Under the pieces are notes generated by a model, which did not search any database, was not told the origin of the DNA, and was given only the letters and a program-made list of their open reading frames with translations. From IMG/VR virus record IMGVR_UViG_3300046169_000050, positions 1 to 59,257 of that record: 59,257 bases of DNA, one strand, 5' to 3'. This stretch comes from a virus (taxonomy: Duplodnaviria > Caudoviricetes). Both the position numbers and the translations under genes were made by a program. Below are positions 9,078-56,865 of the stretch, in pieces (position 1 is the stretch's first letter; each line of letters begins with the position of its first letter).

Positions 9078-9099
9078 AAGCCCCTCCGAAGAGGGGCTT
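9078..9099 (-). terminator. cUUCGg hairpin after capsid gene (weak terminator or 3' stabiliser)
   Basis: AAGCCCCTC-TTCG-GAGGGGCTT on the minus strand followed by ACTTCTT (imperfect U tract). Confidence 0.65.
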
Positions 9100-9106
9100 G
9101 TCTGCC

Positions 9107-10252
9107 TTACTGCGCAGTGTCGAGACAGATCACGCCAAAGTCTTGGACTGATCCGCTAATGTCGCTGTTGTACTTAGGCTTGCGAAGGCCGAAGATCTTA
9201 CCGATTGAGATACCAGCTTGGTTCTCGTAGTCGAACGTATCTTCAACGATATCGGGGAGACCGATATCAGCCATTGCGAGTGACTGAGCACCACAGAACA
9301 GAGCACGTGCGCCGCTTACGTCTGCGTCTGCGCCCCACTTGTAACCAGCCGCGCCAGCGTTTGAAGAAGTACCAGAGGTAGCGCCTTCAGTGCTGAATAC
9401 GTGACGGAACTCGTGGATCATGACGCCATCTACCATCAAGCTCGCAGAACCTGAGAACAGAGAGTTAGATGCGCCGCGAACGCCAGCGTTACGTACGTTA
9501 GCCAAGAAGTCCGAATCGAGCTTCAGGTTGGCCATTTGCTGTGGAGTAACGAACATGTGGAAGATCTCGTCGTTACCAGCGCCTCGGATACCACGGATGT
9601 AGTTGTCCTTAGCGTATGCCTTCAGCTCAACAATGTGCTTGTAGCCAAGCTTGTCAGTAGCTGTAACAGCAGTAGTGTCGCCAGCAGCAATGCTGGTGCC
9701 TGAGATACGACGGTGACGATCGCCAGTAGGCGCAGATACGTCAGATGCGAACTCAAGGTCAACCAACTCGTGACCTGCAGATGCAGAAGTAGCGCGAAGG
9801 CCACCGTTTGTCTTGTGCGTGTACGCAACACCAGAAAGAGTCAAGAACGAGAGCTGGTCCATACGGTCGGCCATTGCATAAGCAAGTGCGTCGCGAGACT
9901 GCTCACGGAAGTTAACTACAGTCTTCTGGTCAGCCATGCGGCCAGCGATACGGTTAGCGAATCGGAGCTGGTCCAACTCGATAGTGATATCGTAGGCGCG
10001 GAGTGCTTCTTCGTTGCCTTCCAGAGTGTTGTCACCGGTGATACCGTCACCAGTCATGTCAGCAAGCAAGGTGATGTTCGCCTTGGTTCCTTTCTCTGAC
10101 TTAGTGAGTTCAGTTACGCGCTGAACGAGAGCGTTTTGGCCAGTTCCTGCGAACTGGTTAACGAAAGACATGTTGCGTGCAACACGCCAGAAATCCCGTG
10201 ACCAAGTCTGTAACTGGTCTCCGGAAAGCATTCCAAAGTTTGTAAGAGCCAT
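9107..10252 (-). CDS. Major capsid protein, N4-gp56/DUF4043 type
   Basis: 381 aa; ELTKSEKG, GD..LEGNEE.L, RALFCGAQ.LA, DYEN..GISIGKIFGL.KP, DFGVI..DTA motifs; strongly biased codons. Confidence 0.9.
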   Translation of the reverse strand: MALTNFGMLSGDQLQTWSRDFWRVARNMSFVNQFAGTGQNALVQRVTELTKSEKGTKANITLLADMTGDGITGDNTLEGNEEALRAYDITIELDQLRFANRIAGRMADQKTVVNFREQSRDALAYAMADRMDQLSFLTLSGVAYTHKTNGGLRATSASAGHELVDLEFASDVSAPTGDRHRRISGTSIAAGDTTAVTATDKLGYKHIVELKAYAKDNYIRGIRGAGNDEIFHMFVTPQQMANLKLDSDFLANVRNAGVRGASNSLFSGSASLMVDGVMIHEFRHVFSTEGATSGTSSNAGAAGYKWGADADVSGARALFCGAQSLAMADIGLPDIVEDTFDYENQAGISIGKIFGLRKPKYNSDISGSVQDFGVICLDTAQ

Positions 10253-10468
10253 GATGGGCCTCCATTAAATTGACAAATAAACACATGCAGCTGTGCTGCA
10301 ACTATTAGCCGACTTAAAGGAGCGGCTAATCCGTTTCCTCGTATCGTGAGGCGACGAACTAGCGCTTTGTTTACGAGGCGCGACCTCGGCTTTTTTTACG
10401 CCTCTGCAGGCGAGATTCGTTTTTAACGCCTACGGGGCGATCAACTATCGTGCTGACGGACGAATGTA
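10253..10468 (-). ncRNA. Candidate structured 5' leader RNA of the capsid gene
   Basis: Non-coding, seven predicted hairpins, two repeated structural units, anti-SD loop (see findings). Confidence 0.6.
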
Positions 10469-10474
10469 CTTCGT

Positions 10475-10503
10475 ATATTAGCGTCACTAATATTAAGACG
10501 CAA
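10475..10503 (-). promoter_or_regulatory. Sigma70-like capsid promoter overlapped by a 17-bp operator
   Basis: TTGCGT-17 bp-TAATAT on minus strand; operator TATTAGCGTCACTAATA at 10476-10492. Confidence 0.7.
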
Positions 10504-10506
10504 GCA

Positions 10507-10764
10507 CTACTTCTTCCTGCGTCTTCCTGACGCTGTAACGGCGTGTTTGATCTTGGCGGGGCCAGTCTTACGCCGGGCAGATGACGCCTTTTCTGCTTTC
10601 GTCATTTTCGCTGCAACGGCTTTTGGCCTGCACGAAGGATATGGGCGCTTGCTCTTCCCTTTCGCGGACTTACGACCACAAGGTTTGCCGGTCTTTACGT
10701 CGACCCAGCCCTCTTTAAACCATTTTCTAAGGGCAGCACCCTTCTTACTTTTTCTTACGGCCAC
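10507..10764 (-). CDS. Small basic protein (DUF5872-like)
   Basis: L.KWFKE.WVDVKTGKPCGR...RPYP.CRP motif; very K/R-rich. Confidence 0.75.
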   Translation of the reverse strand: MAVRKSKKGAALRKWFKEGWVDVKTGKPCGRKSAKGKSKRPYPSCRPKAVAAKMTKAEKASSARRKTGPAKIKHAVTASGRRRKK

Positions 10765-10903
10765 TTTTGTTACCCCAATTCTTAGCGCCTACTTTTCGGC
10801 ACTTGGCAACTGCACCTGACGCGTACGCCGACGGCCAAACCTTGTAACGGGCCTTGACCTTCTTAGCGCATGCGTCGCTTGCCTTCTTCTTTTTTGCTGG
10901 CAT
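10745..10903 (-). CDS. 52-aa basic protein (not in ORF track)
   Basis: MPAKKKKASDACAKKVKARYKVWPSAYASGAVAKCRKVGAKNWGNKSGRKKK; TGATG coupling to the upstream stop. Confidence 0.75.
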   Translation of the reverse strand: MPAKKKKASDACAKKVKARYKVWPSAYASGAVAKCRKVGAKNWGNKSGRKKK

Positions 10904-11103
10904 CACTTACTACTCACTGGTTGAGTCGTCATGAAGCGCAAAACCACGATACCGCTGGCCATTGCACACCCGATCATTGCCTGAACTGCTGGGTTTGCCG
11001 GTAAAAACCCGATAAACCCCTGCAATACTGAGAGAACTGCGATCGCAACGCCGTATTGCACGGTTCGTGACTTAAATGCCTGTTTCACGTGTGCTGGGAT
11101 CAT
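10903..11103 (-). CDS. 66-aa two-TM membrane protein (holin-like)
   Basis: Two hydrophobic segments; LR..TTQPVS C-terminus; ATGA coupling to the upstream gene. Confidence 0.55.
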   Translation of the reverse strand: MIPAHVKQAFKSRTVQYGVAIAVLSVLQGFIGFLPANPAVQAMIGCAMASGIVVLRFMTTQPVSSK

Positions 11104-11231
11104 TTTTTAGCCCTCTTCGCCTTTAGGCGCTTAAGACGAGCAAGTTCAGCCGCCTCAATCTTAGTTGGCTTACGTGTCATCTTAGGGTTGTAAGCCGCAC
11201 CACGTGGCGGGACTTTCTTTTTAACTGTCAT
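11100..11231 (-). CDS. 43-aa basic protein (not in ORF track)
   Basis: MTVKKKVPPRGAAYNPKMTRKPTKIEAAELARLKRLKAKRAKK; GAGG RBS; stop overlaps next start. Confidence 0.65.
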   Translation of the reverse strand: MTVKKKVPPRGAAYNPKMTRKPTKIEAAELARLKRLKAKRAKK

Positions 11232-11232
11232 A

Positions 11233-11322
11233 TCAATACCTCTTCTTTCGTCGAGTTGTGGGCTTTTTCTTTGGCTTCTTTTTGCTGCTTTTGCTGCAGC
11301 TGCAAGGTTTACCGTTATGCAT
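11233..11322 (-). CDS. 29-aa basic peptide
   Basis: MHNGKPCSCSKSSKKKPKKKPTTRRKKRY; GGAG RBS; starts 1 nt after previous stop. Confidence 0.6.
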   Translation of the reverse strand: MHNGKPCSCSKSSKKKPKKKPTTRRKKRY

Positions 11323-11323
11323 G

Positions 11324-11434
11324 CTAGTAACTCCGAGCTTTGCGTGCTGGGGCTTTGGCTTTAGACCGTTTCTTACACTTACCGGCCTTCTTACAGGCTG
11401 CTTTGGTTGTACAGGTTGCACAGGGCTTAAACAT
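11324..11434 (-). CDS. 36-aa Cys/Lys-rich peptide (not in ORF track)
   Basis: MFKPCATCTTKAACKKAGKCKKRSKAKAPARKARSY; strong TAAGGAG RBS. Confidence 0.7.
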   Translation of the reverse strand: MFKPCATCTTKAACKKAGKCKKRSKAKAPARKARSY

Positions 11435-11444
11435 GATTAACTCC

Positions 11445-11711
11445 TTACCATTTTTTGCACGACCAGTACCGTGCAGTTAGTTTGCTAGGTGGACTTGTGT
11501 CACATCGATGCCGTGCCCTGAACGACTTGCGTCGTCCGGGCTGACTTTTCTTGATAGTCATCTTGGCGTCGCCAAAACGAATGGTTTTTGTCTTATCACC
11601 CTGCTTTGCAACAACTACGAACTTTTTGGTCGGGTGACTCGGCGTTCGTTTCGGCTTGTTGTAGCCACTTACGCCTGCTCGCGCTAACTTCGGGTCTTTC
11701 TTGGCTGGCAT
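11445..11711 (-). CDS. Small basic protein (DUF6321-like)
   Basis: K.IRFGD..M.IKK..P.RRKSFRARH.C.....KL.ARYWSC..W motif. Confidence 0.8.
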   Translation of the reverse strand: MPAKKDPKLARAGVSGYNKPKRTPSHPTKKFVVVAKQGDKTKTIRFGDAKMTIKKSQPGRRKSFRARHRCDTSPPSKLTARYWSCKKW

Positions 11712-12724
11712 TACAGGATATCTCCGCGTAATCGTCTCAGCGTTGCTTCCGGCAGTGCATTGAACTCGTCTTCCGTCATGGAAGCGATGTCTAAGGCTTT
11801 CTCTCCACGTGCAGTCGACGACTCACCCGGCATTTCGGGCGGTTGTGACTCTGCGGCTTTAAGTTTTCGGCTAACTTCGGCTCTTTTCTTAGCAACTTCG
11901 TCTACGCGGGGCGCAGTTTCGCCAGAAAGCGATGGGGTAGCAGCTGCTTCGGTCATATCGACCAAGTCATACTCGCGAAGCACAAATTTTGCGGCCTTTG
12001 TAAGCGCTGCAACGGGGTTTTCGCCCTTCATAATAAACGCATCGCGCAAATCGATGACTTCTTGGGTGTAGCCTTCGTTGTATTGATCGGAATTTCTGTC
12101 AAAAACCGGGAAATTGTCCTCTAATTCCGATGCAGCTTGCTGCAAAGCAGTCGCTTGCTGGCTTTGAGACACGGATTCGCCGATTTTTGAGCTAAATTCG
12201 TACTCTAACTGCGCCCTTTCCGCCGTTCGGATCTCTTTTCGGAGAGCTGCAGCCTTCTGAGCCTCGCCATCGAGCACCAAATTCTGATATTCGACTTCTT
12301 TGGAGTCAAAATCGTAGGCTTCTGGTGCTTCGCCCGGCTCCTGCTTCTGCGCTCGTAGCTCGTCGAGCTGCTTTTCCAGCGCTTTCTGCTTGGCCAACAC
12401 CTCGTCAAGGCGCGACTTAGGCACCATGTGCTTGCGTGGCTCTTCAGGAGCAGGTTCTTCTGCTGCTTCTACTGCTTCTGTAACCGGCGTTTGGTCGCCG
12501 AGAGAAGGTGAATCGTCTTCTGCCACAGGTTCTTCAGCTTCCGCAACAGCTTCAACTTCAGTTTCTTCAGCTTCCGCAACAACTTCTTCATCTTCTGGCT
12601 CCTCCACAGGCTCTTCGCCCAATCCAAAGTTCAAATCAAGCTGCTCTGCAGCTGAGTCTTCAGGTGCATCTGATCCGGGCATGCGGTCATACACCAATTC
12701 GTCTTTCTGCTCTTCGTTAGACAT
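11711..12724 (-). CDS. Capsid scaffolding protein
   Basis: Acidic N-terminus, VPKSRLDEV, coiled coil, C-terminal MTEDEF.ALP...RLRGD; between portal and capsid genes. Confidence 0.8.
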   Translation of the reverse strand: MSNEEQKDELVYDRMPGSDAPEDSAAEQLDLNFGLGEEPVEEPEDEEVVAEAEETEVEAVAEAEEPVAEDDSPSLGDQTPVTEAVEAAEEPAPEEPRKHMVPKSRLDEVLAKQKALEKQLDELRAQKQEPGEAPEAYDFDSKEVEYQNLVLDGEAQKAAALRKEIRTAERAQLEYEFSSKIGESVSQSQQATALQQAASELEDNFPVFDRNSDQYNEGYTQEVIDLRDAFIMKGENPVAALTKAAKFVLREYDLVDMTEAAATPSLSGETAPRVDEVAKKRAEVSRKLKAAESQPPEMPGESSTARGEKALDIASMTEDEFNALPEATLRRLRGDIL

Positions 12725-17297: not shown

Positions 17298-17304
17298 AGG
17301 CGAA

Positions 17305-17321
17305 TATTAGCCTTACTAATA
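17305..17321. promoter_or_regulatory. 17-bp palindromic operator
   Basis: TATTAGCCTTACTAATA, intergenic. Confidence 0.75.
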
Positions 17322-17324
17322 TAT

Positions 17325-17789: not shown

Positions 17790-17806
17790 AGACCGTGCCC
17801 CCCGGT

Positions 17807-17823
17807 CATTAGTTGAGCTAATA
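17807..17823. promoter_or_regulatory. 17-bp palindromic operator at start of the late arm
   Basis: CATTAGTTGAGCTAATA. Confidence 0.7.
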
Positions 17824-18039
17824 ATACGTACCAGAAATTTTTTTGCAAAATTTATTTATGAATCGCTCACACACTATCTCCCCCCTGCCGACTAGACCCA
17901 GCCCTTTCCCCGATCACGGACATTGAACCTTGTTTCGTGATTCGTGGCTGGAACCTTGTCCGGCAGTAACCCCTTTTACTCACTCGTTCCTCATTCGTTG
18001 TCGTTTGTCTTTGTGTCTTTAACTAATAGGAGATAAGAC

Positions 18040-19218: not shown

Positions 19219-19381
19219 TCCACTCCCCTTAAACTTTGAGTCAGACCATTGGGACTGGCTCGTAGACCACGAAGCACAACTCGTGGAGCATGGTACACAC
19301 GACGTGGACCTTGATTCTGTGCTTCAAACTATTAGCCCAGCTAATATTACAACCACTCTAGAGGAAACTAGCTATGACTAA
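19211..19381 (+). CDS. Hypothetical early protein
   Basis: GGAGG RBS; contains operator 19330-19346. Confidence 0.5.
   Translation: MLNPLPLNFESDHWDWLVDHEAQLVEHGTHDVDLDSVLQTISPANITTTLEETSYD
19330..19346. promoter_or_regulatory. 17-bp palindromic operator
   Basis: TATTAGCCCAGCTAATA, 27 bp upstream of the 204-aa gene. Confidence 0.75.
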
Positions 19382-23982: not shown

Positions 23983-23983
23983 T

Positions 23984-24000
23984 TATTAGTACTGCTAATG
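23984..24000. promoter_or_regulatory. 17-bp palindromic operator
   Basis: TATTAGTACTGCTAATG, intergenic, abutting the TAAGGAG RBS. Confidence 0.7.
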
Positions 24001-24012
24001 TAAGGAGTTCAC

Positions 24013-24846: not shown

Positions 24847-26653
24847 TATCACGCTTGATTTCGAGACTTACTTTGACACCAAGGTCTCGCTAACCAAACT
24901 CACCACAATGGAATACATCAAACACCCCATGTTCAAAGTGTGGGGAGTCGGAATCAAATACGACGATTGTGACACCGTGTGGTTTACCGAAGACGAAGTA
25001 GAAGATGAGCTTGCAGACATCGACTGGACTGATGTCCGACTCATCTGCCACAACACCCCTTTCGATGCATACGTTCTATCACAGTACTTCGGGTACATAC
25101 CCGCATACTTTATAGACACAGCTGCAATGTCACGAGGCAAGTACCCCGGCCAATCTGCCAGACTTGCCGACACAGCTATACGTCTATTCCCCAATGATGA
25201 AAGTATGCGGAAGGGGGGAGAGTTAGCGGAGGCAAAAGGAACCTTCGACCTCTCCCCCGAACAAGACGAGTCGCTTGGACGCTACTGCATACAAGACGTC
25301 GACCTAACATATGCTATCTGGAAACAGATGGAGCCTGACTACCCACAGTCCGAGTTGGATCTTATTGATCTAACAACACGGATGTTTGTAGACCCGGTCA
25401 TAGAAATAGACCGTGAACGACTAACCACGTACTTAGAAACAGAAACCAAGAACCGTGAAACAAAGATAGAAGCAGCAGGTATCTGCCCCAAAATCCTTAG
25501 TTCCAACGATAAGTTCGCTGAACATCTACGATCTATCGACATAGAACCACCGATCAAACGCAGCCCCAACACAGGTAAAAACATCCCAGCTTTCGGTAAA
25601 AACGATGCAGGCTGGAAACAAATGGTTGCAATGTACCCAGAGCACAACCATCTCTGGAATGCTCGCGAAGCTGTAAAGTCACGACTAACAGAGACAAGAG
25701 CGCAGCGCTTCCTCGATGCTGCTTTAGACGACAACCGTATCCCAGCACCGTTGCGTTACTACGCTGCGCACACTGGGCGGTTTGGTGGCACCGAAAAGCT
25801 CAACATGCAAAACCTTCCTCGAGGTGGCGAGTTACGTCAATGTCTCGTCGCACCCAAAGACCACCTAGTTTACGTAGCTGACCTGTCAAACATTGAAGCG
25901 CGCATGCTGGCTTACGTTGCAGATCAACAAGACCTCATCGAGCAGTTTAGACGCGGCGACGACATTTACTCCAACTTCGCAAGCGTCATCTACGAACGCC
26001 CTATCAATAAAAAGAAAGACCCCACCGAACGATTTGTAGGTAAAACTGCAATCCTTGGGCTGGGCTACGGCATGGGGCACAACAAATTCCAAGCCACGCT
26101 CAAGTCTGGAGCAATGGGTCCACCCCAAGATTTCACCCAGCGAGAAGCACTTGAGATCGTTACTAAGTACCGCACTACTTACAACAAGATTGCGCTGCTA
26201 TGGAGCAGGCTTCAAGACCAGCTACAACTAACCCTCCACTCCGAAAACTACGGCATGAAATATGGTCCGTTCTTTACTGTAGAAAGAAACGGATTCCGGC
26301 TGCCGAACGGTATGTCTCTTCACTACACAGACCTGTCGCCTGAAGCGACAGGTGGGTATGCGTATCTATCACGCGGTAAAAAAGAGTACACGTACGGAGG
26401 GCGAATCACTGAAAACCTTATACAAGCACTGTCTCGTATTGTAATTACAGACAGCATGCTACGGCTGCAGAACAAGATGCCTGACGCACGAGTCGCGCTA
26501 ACGGTTCACGATGAGATAATTATTATTGCAGCTAATACCCACCCTGATGCTACAATGAATACGATCATTGACGATCTATGCATCGCTCCAGAGTGGGCAC
26601 CAGATCTTCCTTTAGCTGCTGAGGGTGGTTACGACACCGTATATAGTAAATAA
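24839..26653 (+). CDS. polA: Family A DNA polymerase with 3'-5' exonuclease
   Basis: Start TTG 24839; LDFET, HN..FD, YC.QDV exonuclease motifs; HTGRFGG, NMQNLP, DLSNIEAR (A), RFVGKTAILGLGYG (B), VHDE (C). Confidence 0.95.
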   Translation: MTDITLDFETYFDTKVSLTKLTTMEYIKHPMFKVWGVGIKYDDCDTVWFTEDEVEDELADIDWTDVRLICHNTPFDAYVLSQYFGYIPAYFIDTAAMSRGKYPGQSARLADTAIRLFPNDESMRKGGELAEAKGTFDLSPEQDESLGRYCIQDVDLTYAIWKQMEPDYPQSELDLIDLTTRMFVDPVIEIDRERLTTYLETETKNRETKIEAAGICPKILSSNDKFAEHLRSIDIEPPIKRSPNTGKNIPAFGKNDAGWKQMVAMYPEHNHLWNAREAVKSRLTETRAQRFLDAALDDNRIPAPLRYYAAHTGRFGGTEKLNMQNLPRGGELRQCLVAPKDHLVYVADLSNIEARMLAYVADQQDLIEQFRRGDDIYSNFASVIYERPINKKKDPTERFVGKTAILGLGYGMGHNKFQATLKSGAMGPPQDFTQREALEIVTKYRTTYNKIALLWSRLQDQLQLTLHSENYGMKYGPFFTVERNGFRLPNGMSLHYTDLSPEATGGYAYLSRGKKEYTYGGRITENLIQALSRIVITDSMLRLQNKMPDARVALTVHDEIIIIAANTHPDATMNTIIDDLCIAPEWAPDLPLAAEGGYDTVYSK

Positions 26654-26655
26654 CA

Positions 26656-26853
26656 ATGTCAAGACTAGTCCTGTCAAGAAAGATCAAACAAGGAGTTACC
26701 ATCCACAAAGATGGTAAGGTCTTAGCAAGCTTGGAAGTACACAAAGTTGACCGCAACTCGGTCACATTAGCGTTTGTCGCAGACACGGAAATAAAAATAG
26801 ATCGCGACGAAATTTATAGCAAGGAGTCAGAGACTAATAAGTCAGATTATTAG
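26656..26853 (+). CDS. csrA: CsrA/RsmA-like RNA-binding protein
   Basis: LVLSRK...V.I ... V.LAF.A...IKI.R.EI matches the CsrA fold pattern, including the conserved Arg. Confidence 0.75.
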   Translation: MSRLVLSRKIKQGVTIHKDGKVLASLEVHKVDRNSVTLAFVADTEIKIDRDEIYSKESETNKSDY

Positions 26854-26864
26854 TTGCGCTATTA
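26848..26864. promoter_or_regulatory. 17-bp palindromic operator
   Basis: TATTAGTTGCGCTATTA just upstream of the primase-helicase RBS. Confidence 0.6.
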
Positions 26865-26876
26865 ACGGAGGGATCT

Positions 26877-29384: not shown

Positions 29385-29387
29385 AAC

Positions 29388-29404
29388 TATTAGCTATACT
29401 AATA
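29388..29404. promoter_or_regulatory. 17-bp operator within a promoter-like sequence
   Basis: TATTAGCTATACTAATA; TTGCGA-16 bp-TATACT. Confidence 0.75.
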
Positions 29405-29429
29405 ACAACGAAGCAGGAATATTCGTACT

Positions 29430-30810: not shown

Positions 30811-31381
30811 TAAGGTCACCACTGGCGCTTGGAAAAATGCTGCAATCTACAGCCTGACGCTCGAAGAACGCACCACCTGCCCTTCCGACTGCGAACAATG
30901 GGACACCTGCTATGGCAACAACATGCCGTTTGCTGCGCGTTACGATCATACACACCCTATGTTCCTCACCAATCTAGAAGAAAACATCAGCGATCTAATC
31001 TGCAAACACATATGGAAAGGACAACCATTAGCTATCAGGCTGCACGTACTAGGCGACTTCTTCAGTGTCGACTACGTTAACTTCTGGAACGACTACGTTG
31101 TTGGATGGGACATGCTTCACGTATGGGGGTACACGCACCACGATCCACAGTCCGAGATCGGTGAAGCCATTACCCGCATGAACACAATGGACAACTGCTA
31201 CGTTAGGTTCTCCGACTCAAAGTTCACAGCACCAATGAACCTACAAGCCAACGTCATTGCTTCAGAAAGAGAGCGATATACTGGCCTCATCTGCCCTGAG
31301 CAAAGAGGCATCAAACTCAGCTGCGGTGATTGCGCCATGTGTTGGACTAGCAACAAAGCCATCAATTTTTTGCAACATTAA
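30695..31381 (+). CDS. GP88-like Cys-rich (radical-SAM-like) protein
   Basis: N.KLG, TCP..C....CY, RLHVLGDF, WGYT, VRFS, CP.Q....C..C..CW. Confidence 0.7.
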   Translation: MKTLSPVKERRTRTRYLKSVKTPSVTMLKPGGNNKKLGSKVTTGAWKNAAIYSLTLEERTTCPSDCEQWDTCYGNNMPFAARYDHTHPMFLTNLEENISDLICKHIWKGQPLAIRLHVLGDFFSVDYVNFWNDYVVGWDMLHVWGYTHHDPQSEIGEAITRMNTMDNCYVRFSDSKFTAPMNLQANVIASERERYTGLICPEQRGIKLSCGDCAMCWTSNKAINFLQH

Positions 31382-31398
31382 TATTAGCTGTGCTAATA
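31382..31398. promoter_or_regulatory. 17-bp operator within a promoter-like sequence
   Basis: TATTAGCTGTGCTAATA; TTGCAA-18 bp-TAATAT. Confidence 0.75.
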
Positions 31399-31427
31399 TT
31401 CTTAAACAGAAAGGTGCCATTAGGATT

Positions 31428-33848: not shown

Positions 33849-34274
33849 ATGAACGAGCACGGATTCGTAAGGTCCGTGCATCGTCAGTTATCTCCTGACG
33901 TTTTTGTCTGGAAGATTAACGACAAGTATGCGGGCGGTGTGCCAGATGCGTTTTACGCTGGTCCTGCCCGCTGTTTATTCGTTGAATACAAGTACGTAAA
34001 GCTACCTAAGCGGGACACAACGCTTGTCAAAACAAGCCTGTCTGAACAACAAAAGCTTTGGTTGGACAGGATGTTAGCTATGGACAAGCAGGTAGCTCTA
34101 GTTATAGGATCAGTATTAGGAAATATAATAATTGATAAGGACTGGGACTCCCCAATCCCGACAGAACTATTTAGACAGCGCGCTATGTCTACGAAAGCTG
34201 TTGCTCAGTGGATATCAGCGTTCTGTTTGGAAAAATGCCATGACTACGAAGAAGGATTCTTCCGTGGCTGCTAA
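33849..34274 (+). CDS. VRR-NUC/Holliday-junction-resolvase-like nuclease
   Basis: MNE..F, GVPD, FVEYK, LS.QQ..W. Confidence 0.8.
   Translation: MNEHGFVRSVHRQLSPDVFVWKINDKYAGGVPDAFYAGPARCLFVEYKYVKLPKRDTTLVKTSLSEQQKLWLDRMLAMDKQVALVIGSVLGNIIIDKDWDSPIPTELFRQRAMSTKAVAQWISAFCLEKCHDYEEGFFRGC
34114..34130 (+). promoter_or_regulatory. Operator variant overlapping a TATAAT upstream of the repressor
   Basis: TATTAGGAAATATAATA; TATAAT at 34124-34129, about 110 bp before ATG 34240. Confidence 0.55.
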
Positions 34275-36220: not shown

Positions 36221-36242
36221 GTATTGTCATCCTGACATTGTC

Positions 36243-36259
36243 TATTAGCTGTACTAATT
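36243..36259. promoter_or_regulatory. 17-bp operator overlapping a minus-strand TATAAT upstream of DUF3310-xis
   Basis: TATTAGCTGTACTAATT; TATAAT at 36262-36257. Confidence 0.7.
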
Positions 36260-36325
36260 ATACTTCTTTTTCTTCCTCTTACTACCCTTTGGCTTCTGAT
36301 TTATGCAGGGTTGTCCCTTATGCAT
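36254..36325 (-). CDS. 23-aa basic peptide (not in ORF track)
   Basis: MHKGQPCINQKPKGSKRKKKKYN; TAAGGAG RBS; similar to the peptide at 11233-11322. Confidence 0.6.
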   Translation of the reverse strand: MHKGQPCINQKPKGSKRKKKKYN

Positions 36326-43186: not shown

Positions 43187-43226
43187 TTGCTAACTCCTAT
43201 AGGGCATAAACATCTATCCGTCATTT

Positions 43227-43243
43227 TATTAGCTGTGCTAATT
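43227..43243. promoter_or_regulatory. 17-bp operator within a minus-strand promoter-like sequence
   Basis: TATTAGCTGTGCTAATT; TTGCAA-16 bp-TAAAAT. Confidence 0.7.
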
Positions 43244-43253
43244 TTTGCAACTA

Positions 43254-56809: not shown

Positions 56810-56836
56810 TTTTGCTCCCTACCTAACGAGGCAGTA

Positions 56837-56853
56837 TATTAGTATTGCTAATA
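56837..56853. promoter_or_regulatory. 17-bp palindromic operator upstream of the tail operon
   Basis: TATTAGTATTGCTAATA, intergenic. Confidence 0.75.
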
Positions 56854-56865
56854 AATTTACACCCA

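Follow-up and report, generated by a model that had tools for sequence, protein, structure and literature searches.

Translational riboswitch expression platforms, for example that of thiM, combine an anti-Shine-Dalgarno (anti-SD) strand with an anti-anti-SD strand. In the leaders repressed by CsrA or RsmA, GGA motifs lie in loops, and one of them lies over the Shine-Dalgarno (SD) sequence. Control of phage lambda cIII reportedly needs neither a leader peptide nor an aptamer: the mRNA is said to assume two alternative folds around the start, one of which closes the SD, and the balance between them to set the initiation rate. Translational control of the late structural genes of double-stranded DNA phages is poorly charted in general, and almost nothing is available for uncultured marine phages. 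Here, we describe the leader of the major capsid gene in IMG/VR virus record IMGVR_UViG_3300046169_000050, a complete 59-kb record (Duplodnaviria; Caudoviricetes). The whole stretch of 59,257 nucleotides is hereafter called the window; its coordinates are used throughout, and the leader and the capsid gene are read on its minus strand.

We propose, with a probability of roughly 0.45, that this leader carries a two-state translational switch, in which two helices, P0 and P2, compete with each other and the formation of P0 releases an anti-SD segment onto the ribosome binding site (RBS). The capsid mRNA, made from its own sigma-70-like promoter, would carry a leader of about 215 nt with the hairpins H1-H4, P1, P2, and P3, and the 3′ module of this leader would take two mutually exclusive folds. 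In fold A, P2 would be formed, keeping the anti-SD segment—CUCC with the adjoining A/U bases—in its loop, and the SD would be free or weakly contacted. In fold B, positions 10363-10354 would pair with ACGGAUUAGC (10334-10325) to form P0 around P1, thereby taking the 5′ strand of P2; the released loop and the 3′ strand of P2 would then zip onto the A/U tract and GGAG, with P3 at the tip, and close the RBS. The balance between the folds would set the amount of capsid protein translated. For this to operate, the SD pairing would have to matter in vivo, and something—the 30S subunit, a protein of the phage or its host, or a ligand that H1-H4 sense—would have to shift the balance. If true, the switch would provide a compact, testable model for the dosing of the phage's most abundant protein. 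It would also supply RNA engineering with a new natural module that sequesters the SD, and give a defined RNA for testing phage-encoded CsrA homologues.

Two conserved helices with a common strand

Relatives were gathered by four capsid-based scans, which returned at least 597, at least 593, at least 556 (viral contigs), and at least 418 (metagenomes). The 320 loci taken from them, designated by L numbers, gave 150 unique upstream sequences, with some contigs sampled more than once. Alignment A1 comprises 90 unique leaders and was the input to RNAalifold, and alignment A3 comprises 112 distinct P0-to-P2 segments, aligned by MAFFT with no structure fitted. In addition, full-length pairing probabilities were computed for the leaders of 108 relatives.

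P2 is the hairpin to which an earlier note on this DNA had drawn attention, and it is present as described there: the strands ATTAGCCG and CGGCTAAT (10330-10323 and 10311-10304) enclose the 11-nt loop CTCCTTTAAGT (10322-10312). As minus-strand RNA, the hairpin reads AUUAGCCG-[CUCCUUUAAGU]-CGGCUAAU (10330-10304), and the loop CUCCUUUAAGU is the anti-SD segment. Across the 112 segments of A3, the P2 core is 91.7% paired and all seven of its pairs have changed on both sides; pair 71:84, for example, is GC in 95 segments, AU in 10, UA in 4, and GU in 2. The stem GCCG/CGGC is rewritten elsewhere as GUCU/AGAC, GCCA/UGGC, ACCG/CGGU, ACUG/CAGU, GUCA/UGGC, GUCG/CGAC, or GUUG/CGAC. Judged by this covariation, P2 is a real hairpin.

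How, then, could the loop reach the RBS? In its full-length folds, the leader of the window lacks P2. The strand GCUAGUUCGU (10354-10363, minus strand) pairs with ACGGAUUAGC (10325-10334, minus strand) around P1, forming P0, and the last six nucleotides of the latter strand also belong to the 5′ strand of P2. The segment thus freed pairs with the RBS in a conventional nested helix capped by P3, in both the minimum free energy (MFE) and the centroid structures of the whole leader, through the pairs CUCC/GGAG, UUAAGU/AUUUAA, GGC/GUC, and AAUA/UGUU. Its partner is the A/U-rich tract with the SD sequence GGAGG (10259-10270, minus strand; GGAGG at 10263-10259), where the pair probabilities in the full-length fold range over 0.35-0.99: 0.86-0.99 in the A/U part and 0.35-0.93 for CUCC:GGAG.

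The competing helix is conserved in the same alignments. Its outer half, which overlaps P2 (A3 columns 19-23/65-69), is 93.8% paired, and four of the five pairs have changed on both sides: pair 21:67 is UA in 87, GU in 12, and AU in 7 segments, and pair 19:69 is GC in 97, AU in 7, and GU in 4. When the partners are slid by 1-3 columns, the paired fraction is 25-50%, and A1 gives the same picture. P0 is, on this covariation, real and not an artefact of one sequence. P0 and P2 share A3 columns 65-69, so that, phylogeny being ignored, two exclusive conserved helices use a common strand. Within this strand, the A3 alignment reads column 67 as compensated in both partners in the L272 clade and in P0 only in L201 and L094, and column 234 of A1 (the A of "GGA") changes along with both partners in the L106 clade. 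Pairing in both helices would account for the near-invariance of GCGCUAG and ACGGAUUAGCCG in relatives whose capsid proteins share only about 80-85% identity.

We compared the two folds of the window by constrained folding, enforcing each helix in turn. For the P0-P2 module alone they are iso-energetic: at 37 °C, P0 gives -23.5 and P2 -23.7 kcal/mol (P2 minus P0, -0.2), and at 5, 15, and 25 °C the difference is -0.5 kcal/mol each. When the RBS is included, P0 is ahead by 4.9-6.3 kcal/mol. At 37 °C, the stretch up to the AUG gives -41.3 for P0 and -35.8 for P2 (difference +5.5), and the whole leader gives -73.6 and -68.7 (+4.9). For the whole leader, the corresponding values are -92.8, -86.8, and +6.0 at 25 °C, -109.6, -101.9, and +7.7 at 15 °C, and -126.6, -118.6, and +8.0 kcal/mol at 5 °C. 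Read as a computed thermometer test, the closed fold is preferred by 8.0 kcal/mol at 5 °C and by 4.9 kcal/mol at 37 °C, and the local P0/P2 balance is unchanged.

Among the 112 relatives, the median of P2 minus P0 is +2.1 kcal/mol for the module alone, with 37 relatives lying within 2 kcal/mol of balance, and +3.3 kcal/mol up to the AUG, where 73 relatives prefer P0 and 14 prefer P2 by a margin above 2 kcal/mol. In 61 of the 112, the balance moves toward P0 by over 1 kcal/mol once the RBS is added. Some of the enforced pairs are mis-aligned in distant clades, which produces outliers among these energies. The earlier note had suggested a pseudoknot or an alternative fold that sequesters the RBS. 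The alternative fold has gained a second conserved helix, P0, which competes with P2 and is predicted to free the loop for the SD in the window; the long complementarity on which the suggestion was built is specific to a clade, as described below.

Predicted pairing of the P2 loop with the ribosome binding site

The complementarity of the loop to AUUUAAUGGAG (10270-10260; DNA ATTTAATGGAG) at 10 of 11 positions is confirmed: nine of the pairs are Watson-Crick and one is G-U, and the remaining position is a U-U mismatch. By RNAduplex, the loop and the 22-nt RBS form a duplex of -9.1 kcal/mol; shuffled loops average -4.5 kcal/mol, and 1.8% of 500 are as good (calculated for locus L001, the leader of which is identical to that of the window). 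Does this pairing persist in relatives, as the earlier note had proposed to check? The first four loop bases in the 112 segments are CUCC in 84, CACC in 7, CCCC in 6, UACC in 5, AUCC and GCCC and UGUC in 3 each, and UCCC in 1. The CUCC core, matching GGAG, is conserved in 84 of the 112, and CC in 109, even in clades whose stem is entirely different. The extended pairing is not conserved: among 73 classes of loop and RBS, the duplex has a median of -6.7 kcal/mol, reaching -8 or lower in 30, lying between -8 and -6 in 21, and being -6 kcal/mol or weaker in 22. The match at 10 of 11 positions is a trait of the window's clade, and owes much to near-palindromic UUUAA words in both partners. Beyond CUCC:GGAG, the pairing mostly reflects A/U richness. 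By eye, one A-U to U-A swap between loop and RBS distinguishes the L143 and L167 groups.

The core pairing could also be made with P2 still folded. The loop would then kiss the SD in a pseudoknot of the H type whose connecting loop contains P3, partially blocking the ribosome. CUCC:GGAG is the sole loop-RBS pairing common to nearly all clades, and relatives with the RBS flank ACGCA, which cannot extend the pairing, retain CUCC with a constant A-A clash beside the core. Moreover, geometry suggests that a helix of 4-5 bp stacked on P2 would be sterically possible. Against this, ten pairs in an 11-nt loop are sterically impossible with P2 closed, and four base pairs are marginal against the pseudoknot penalty. 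The nested folds also pair two loop bases (C and U) within the loop, and P2 lies outside the predicted ensemble of most full-length leaders: in 84 of 108, the penalty for enforcing it exceeds 2 kcal/mol. We therefore regard the kissing pseudoknot as improbable.

In six loci with the ACGCA flank (L009, L019, L068, L106, L113, and L151), the start region is predicted to be closed otherwise, by pairing of ACGCA with UGCGU in codons 6-8. In the same loci, the P2 3′ strand AGUCGGC is predicted to pair with GCUGACU (codons 8-10) when P0 forms; these folds were cut at +30, and end effects are possible.

In the window, one fold is predicted to pair the SD and the other to leave it free, and 52 of the 108 full-length leaders have a predicted probability above 0.5 that the first four loop bases pair with the RBS. 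Several points weigh against the two-state switch. In 48 of the 108, most of which keep CUCC, the corresponding probability is below 0.1 and the SD is predicted in local pairs instead. The seven clades with CACC, CCCC, UACC, AUCC, GCCC, UGUC, or UCCC show no compensating change in the SD. In the 45 classes with CUCC and GGAG, the contiguous extension past the core averages 1.22 pairs, as compared to 1.03 or fewer expected and to 0.97 after permutation of the loops, and 11% of 5000 permutations are as high. The mean loop-RBS energy is -8.50 kcal/mol versus -7.88 permuted, an advantage of 0.6 kcal/mol that 0.08% of permutations reach when relatedness is ignored. The addition of the RBS shifts the balance toward P2 in 23 of the 112 relatives, and the overlap of P0 with P2 amounts, by our reading, to just 1-2 nt in some distant clades. 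Two natural leader types, the L073 type (four loci: L073-L076) and the L227 type (six loci: L227, L230-L232, L302, and L304), lack P1 and P2 while keeping H1-H4, which implies that the module is dispensable; they offer natural comparisons for its function. In addition, the covariation counts, being based on MAFFT alignments, ignore phylogeny, and the energy model is fallible, as the MFE structure refolds H2 and H3 contrary to the hairpins supported by covariation. Finally, it is not obvious why a capsid gene expressed at a high level should need its RBS closed.

Some of these observations would fit a static, structured 5′ untranslated region (UTR) that protects against RNase, loads ribosomes via A-rich spacers, or binds a protein, with the complementarity and the P0/P2 overlap being non-regulatory. 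The whole leader is unusually stable, with an MFE of -73.6 kcal/mol for 219 nt (z -4.18; none of 200 shuffles is equally stable), and its seven hairpins are kept by covariation. The ends of the P2 loop are kept despite fully changed stems (CC in 109 of 112, the 3′ AAGU in 91 of 112); the RBS fails to explain AAGU in many clades, which fits protein recognition. The protein sites would be the conserved loops, ACGAUA in H1 and P1 and YCC...AAGU in P2. The failure to predict loop-SD pairing in half of the relatives and the weak loop-RBS covariation point the same way. A static leader, on the other hand, leaves three features unexplained: the covariation of the outer half of P0 with P2's own nucleotides, the iso-energetic folds of the window, and the link between the loss of CUCC and a weakened P0. 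As to the last, P0 is intact, with nine or more of its ten pairs, in 79 of 87 leaders with CUCC and in 11 of 21 without it, an association that rests on a handful of clades. On balance, we consider a static leader rather unlikely.

The leader, its promoter, and its transcript

The two-state module is the 3′ part of a larger structured 5′ UTR, which lies behind a promoter and, in hundreds of contigs from uncultured marine phages, precedes the capsid gene. By sequence comparison, it ranks among the best-conserved parts of the lineage's non-coding DNA. The stability noted above is a property of the whole: a 111-nt local fold is unremarkable (z -1.25; 20 of 200 shuffles fold as well). RNAalifold on A1 predicts 34 pairs, 21 of them with compensatory changes, which form the hairpins H1-H4, P1, and P2.

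From the 5′ end (minus strand throughout), H1 with the loop ACGAUA lies at 10441-10456 (A1 columns 93-97/107-111) and shows many compensatory changes. H2, at 10427-10439, is followed by UUAAAAA (columns 112-115/122-125; inner pairs UA in 41, GC in 37, and CG in 12). H3, at 10399-10412, is followed by UAAAAAAA (columns 145-149/155-159), with CG changed to UA in 13 sequences. H4, at 10374-10388, is followed by UAAAC (columns 170-175/181-185). P1, CCUC-ACGAUAC-GAGG at 10337-10351, is enclosed by P0; 96.4% of its cells are paired, and all four pairs have changed on both sides. P3 (10286-10300) is the small hairpin that the earlier note had placed between P2 and the RBS, and it is present as TGCAGC-ACA-GCTGCA, with 6 bp. 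Its sequence is variable and its structure is kept: 71 of 76 distinct spacers between P2 and the SD fold with at least four pairs, and the stem sequences differ between clades.

H2, H3, and H4 (10439-10366) are GC-rich and each is followed by U(U)AAA(A), placing single-stranded A-runs at regular spacing. H1 and P1 share the loop word ACGAUA, each with UUCGU on its 5′ side (10462-10441 and 10358-10337, UUCGU included). UCGU could pair with ACGA of the loop in H1 and P1 to form small pseudoknots, or alternatively these could be twin protein sites; because all of the bases are invariant, covariation cannot decide on these contacts. A broader view would make the whole leader an undescribed class of riboregulator, in which H1-H4, with the repeated ACGAUA loops and the hairpin-UAAAA units, sense a phage protein or metabolite, and P0, P2, and the anti-SD segment constitute the expression platform, timing or dosing capsid translation in an abundant lineage of uncultured marine phages. 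We put this view forward tentatively and hold it to be unlikely.

The capsid gene itself (9107-10252, minus strand; 381 amino acids, ATG at 10252) is the proposed regulated gene, and its identity is firm: it matches Pfam Phage_capsid_3 at E 4e-48 and PHROG 334, major head protein. The nearest cultured relatives by capsid protein are the Pseudomonas phages KPP25 and phiR18, at 51% identity. Judged by reading, with no model search run, the regions upstream of the capsid genes in KPP25 and in Aeromonas phage phiA008 (45% identity) have no similar leader.

The intergenic region is conserved in full across relatives and begins with TTGC[AG]T-17 nt-TAATAT. In the window, the -35-like hexamer TTGCGT (10498-10503, minus strand; TTGC[AG]T kept in A1) stands 17 nt ahead of the -10-like hexamer TAATAT (10475-10480, minus strand), the columns of which are almost invariant in A1. 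This is a sigma-70-type arrangement, with conserved hexamers 16-18 nt apart; an automated promoter scan skipped it because only four of the six -35 positions match. Metatranscriptome contigs from four runs in four studies (three from one year) join the leader with the capsid open reading frame (ORF), for example over 9902-10452, so the leader is found in RNA libraries. The contigs of all four runs end at 10452 or 10453, which is each contig's own end and lies 22-23 nt 3′ of the -10 hexamer. These are assembled contigs, not reads. Taking 10452-10453 (minus strand) as an approximate 5′ boundary of the transcript, they hint weakly that transcription of the capsid mRNA begins from this promoter. 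No RNA contig of the four runs covers 10454-10716, which, for contigs only, says little alone. A strong terminator-like hairpin with nine pairs and a U-containing tail (9078-9099, minus strand) directly follows the capsid stop codon; the promoter and this hairpin suggest that the capsid transcript is largely monocistronic, although in two runs RNA contigs extend beyond the hairpin.

Could the conserved element act in DNA or during transcription, as an operator or as an attenuator with P3 and a U-rich tail as terminator? P3 scores as terminator-like in the window, and ATTAG...CTAAT in P2 echoes a genome-wide palindrome, TATTAG-N5-CTAATA. Nevertheless, G-U pairs occur on the sense strand only (pair 66:89 is UA in 57 and UG in 43), the P3 tail is not U-rich in many relatives, RNA-library contigs pass P3 into the gene, and the P1/P2 core occurs once in the 59-kb genome. 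Action at the level of DNA or transcription is therefore extremely unlikely. We rejected P3 as an intrinsic terminator, the U-tail being unconserved and read through by the RNA contigs, and we rejected a repeated promoter-like element, as the core is single. Leader-peptide or ribosome-stalling attenuation was also rejected: UAG, UAA, or UGA stands in the 5′ strand of P0 in most relatives, but a stop lies four codons upstream and no start is in frame. The same holds for a BoxA-like word, CGCUCCUUUAA, the UUUAA part of which varies and half of which lies in a stem.

The palindrome TATTAG-N5-CTAATA(T) occurs at about 13 intergenic places and overlaps the -10 hexamer at the capsid gene, where the hexamer lies inside TATTAG-N5-CTAATAT (10492-10475). 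With up to three mismatches, there are 38 strand-wise matches versus 9.6 expected, and none of 100 shuffles has as many. The sites are 10475-10493, 17304-17322, 17806-17824, 19329-19347, 23983-24001, 26520-26538, 26847-26865, 29387-29405, 31381-31399, 34113-34131, 36242-36260, 43226-43244, and 56836-56854. At some of the other sites a TTGC-type -35 hexamer stands 17-18 nt upstream, and at others the spacing differs. Probably, the palindrome either serves as a site to which a phage regulator binds or is a signature of the phage's own promoters.

Candidate factors and known systems

What might shift the balance between the folds? The earlier note had named two candidates, the phage CsrA-like protein and the basic peptides encoded nearby. 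The CsrA-family gene (26656-26853, plus strand) is real, scoring 32.8 bits with PF02599 (cut-off 27) and matching PHROG 9500, and a homologue above the Pfam cut-off is present in eight of eight near-complete relatives. Both proposed sites are also present in the window and fit A(N)GGA: ACGGAU (ACGGAT at 10334-10329) and AUGGAG (ATGGAG at 10265-10260). The protein would bind these sites and either repress capsid translation or re-set the fold. In Burkholderia phage CSP3, the major capsid gene is reported to be directly preceded by a CsrA-family gene (PMC10269572); the CSP3 capsid is distantly related (29% identity), and this gene order is a lead and not evidence.

No evidence, however, ties the gene to the leader. 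It lies in the replication module, between the DNA polymerase and primase-helicase genes and away from the capsid gene, and the protein is divergent, with no match in the PDB at E<=0.01. The proposed upstream site fares poorly as well. Among the 112 segments, the junction is ACGGA in 79, UCGGA in 1, ACGGG in 24, ACGGU in 5, and AGGGU in 3, so that GGA is kept in just 80. The invariant ACGG is explained by P0, where it pairs with UCGU, and in either fold the site is part of a helix (P0 or P2), not of a loop. In the A1 alignment and the RNAalifold structure, no hairpin loop of the leader carries GGA. Of the pattern of at least two conserved GGA motifs in loops or single strands, one of them at the SD, the leader shows, trivially, the GGA of the SD. 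Consequently, a toggle operated by the CsrA-like protein appears very unlikely.

The adjacent basic peptides are without any support as a factor. Between the scaffold-like gene (11711-12724) and the capsid promoter, the region 10507-11711 (minus strand) holds small, very basic ORFs rich in K and R, and one membrane-like ORF. The ORF at 10745-10906 matches, at the DNA level, segments of cyanophage "structural" proteins (28 Synechococcus phage records), and it also matches PHROG 727.

How does the leader compare with known RNAs? No Rfam family reaches its gathering score in the window or in 20 diverse relatives; below threshold, the window gives GP20-b (E 3.6) and STnc250 (E 5.8). The first of these, RF03003, precedes GP20 structural genes in phages and is a candidate for their regulation in cis. 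The present leader likewise lies upstream of a phage head gene, and H2-H4 weakly resemble GP20-b, sharing the words GGCGUAAAA and UAAAAAAGC with it. It differs in that the match scores 15.3 bits against a gathering score of 36.2, none of the 20 diverse relatives reaches that score, the covariation supports other hairpins, and the match misses the P2 element. PMC10690425 mentions five candidate RNAs upstream of a major capsid family, and the capsid leader may already be among them.

Compared with the CsrA/RsmA-repressed leaders, the likeness consists of a GGA that overlaps the SD, an upstream A(N)GGA in the window, and a CsrA-family gene in the phage genome; the difference is that the upstream GGA is unconserved and paired in both folds, and that none lies in a hairpin loop. 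The likeness to riboswitch platforms would be closer. The 5′ strand of P0, the shared strand, the anti-SD segment, and the SD could play the corresponding parts, and H1-H4 could act as the sensor. Unlike riboswitches, the leader has no Rfam match, and H1-H4 look like independent stem-loops with A-runs, not like a junctioned aptamer.

By analogy, the closest known counterpart would be the alternative-structure control of lambda cIII, along with these riboswitch platforms. The alternative structures of the cIII mRNA (Altuvia et al. 1989) are cited in the review PMC6524683. Both cases concern a phage mRNA with two alternative folds, one of which closes the SD region—here, as a prediction. They share no sequence or structural homology, and the leader is not homologous to the riboswitch platforms either. 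Moreover, the competing helices of the capsid leader lie 60-110 nt upstream of the start, within a 215-nt leader that carries four further hairpins, and the gene they would control is a late structural one.

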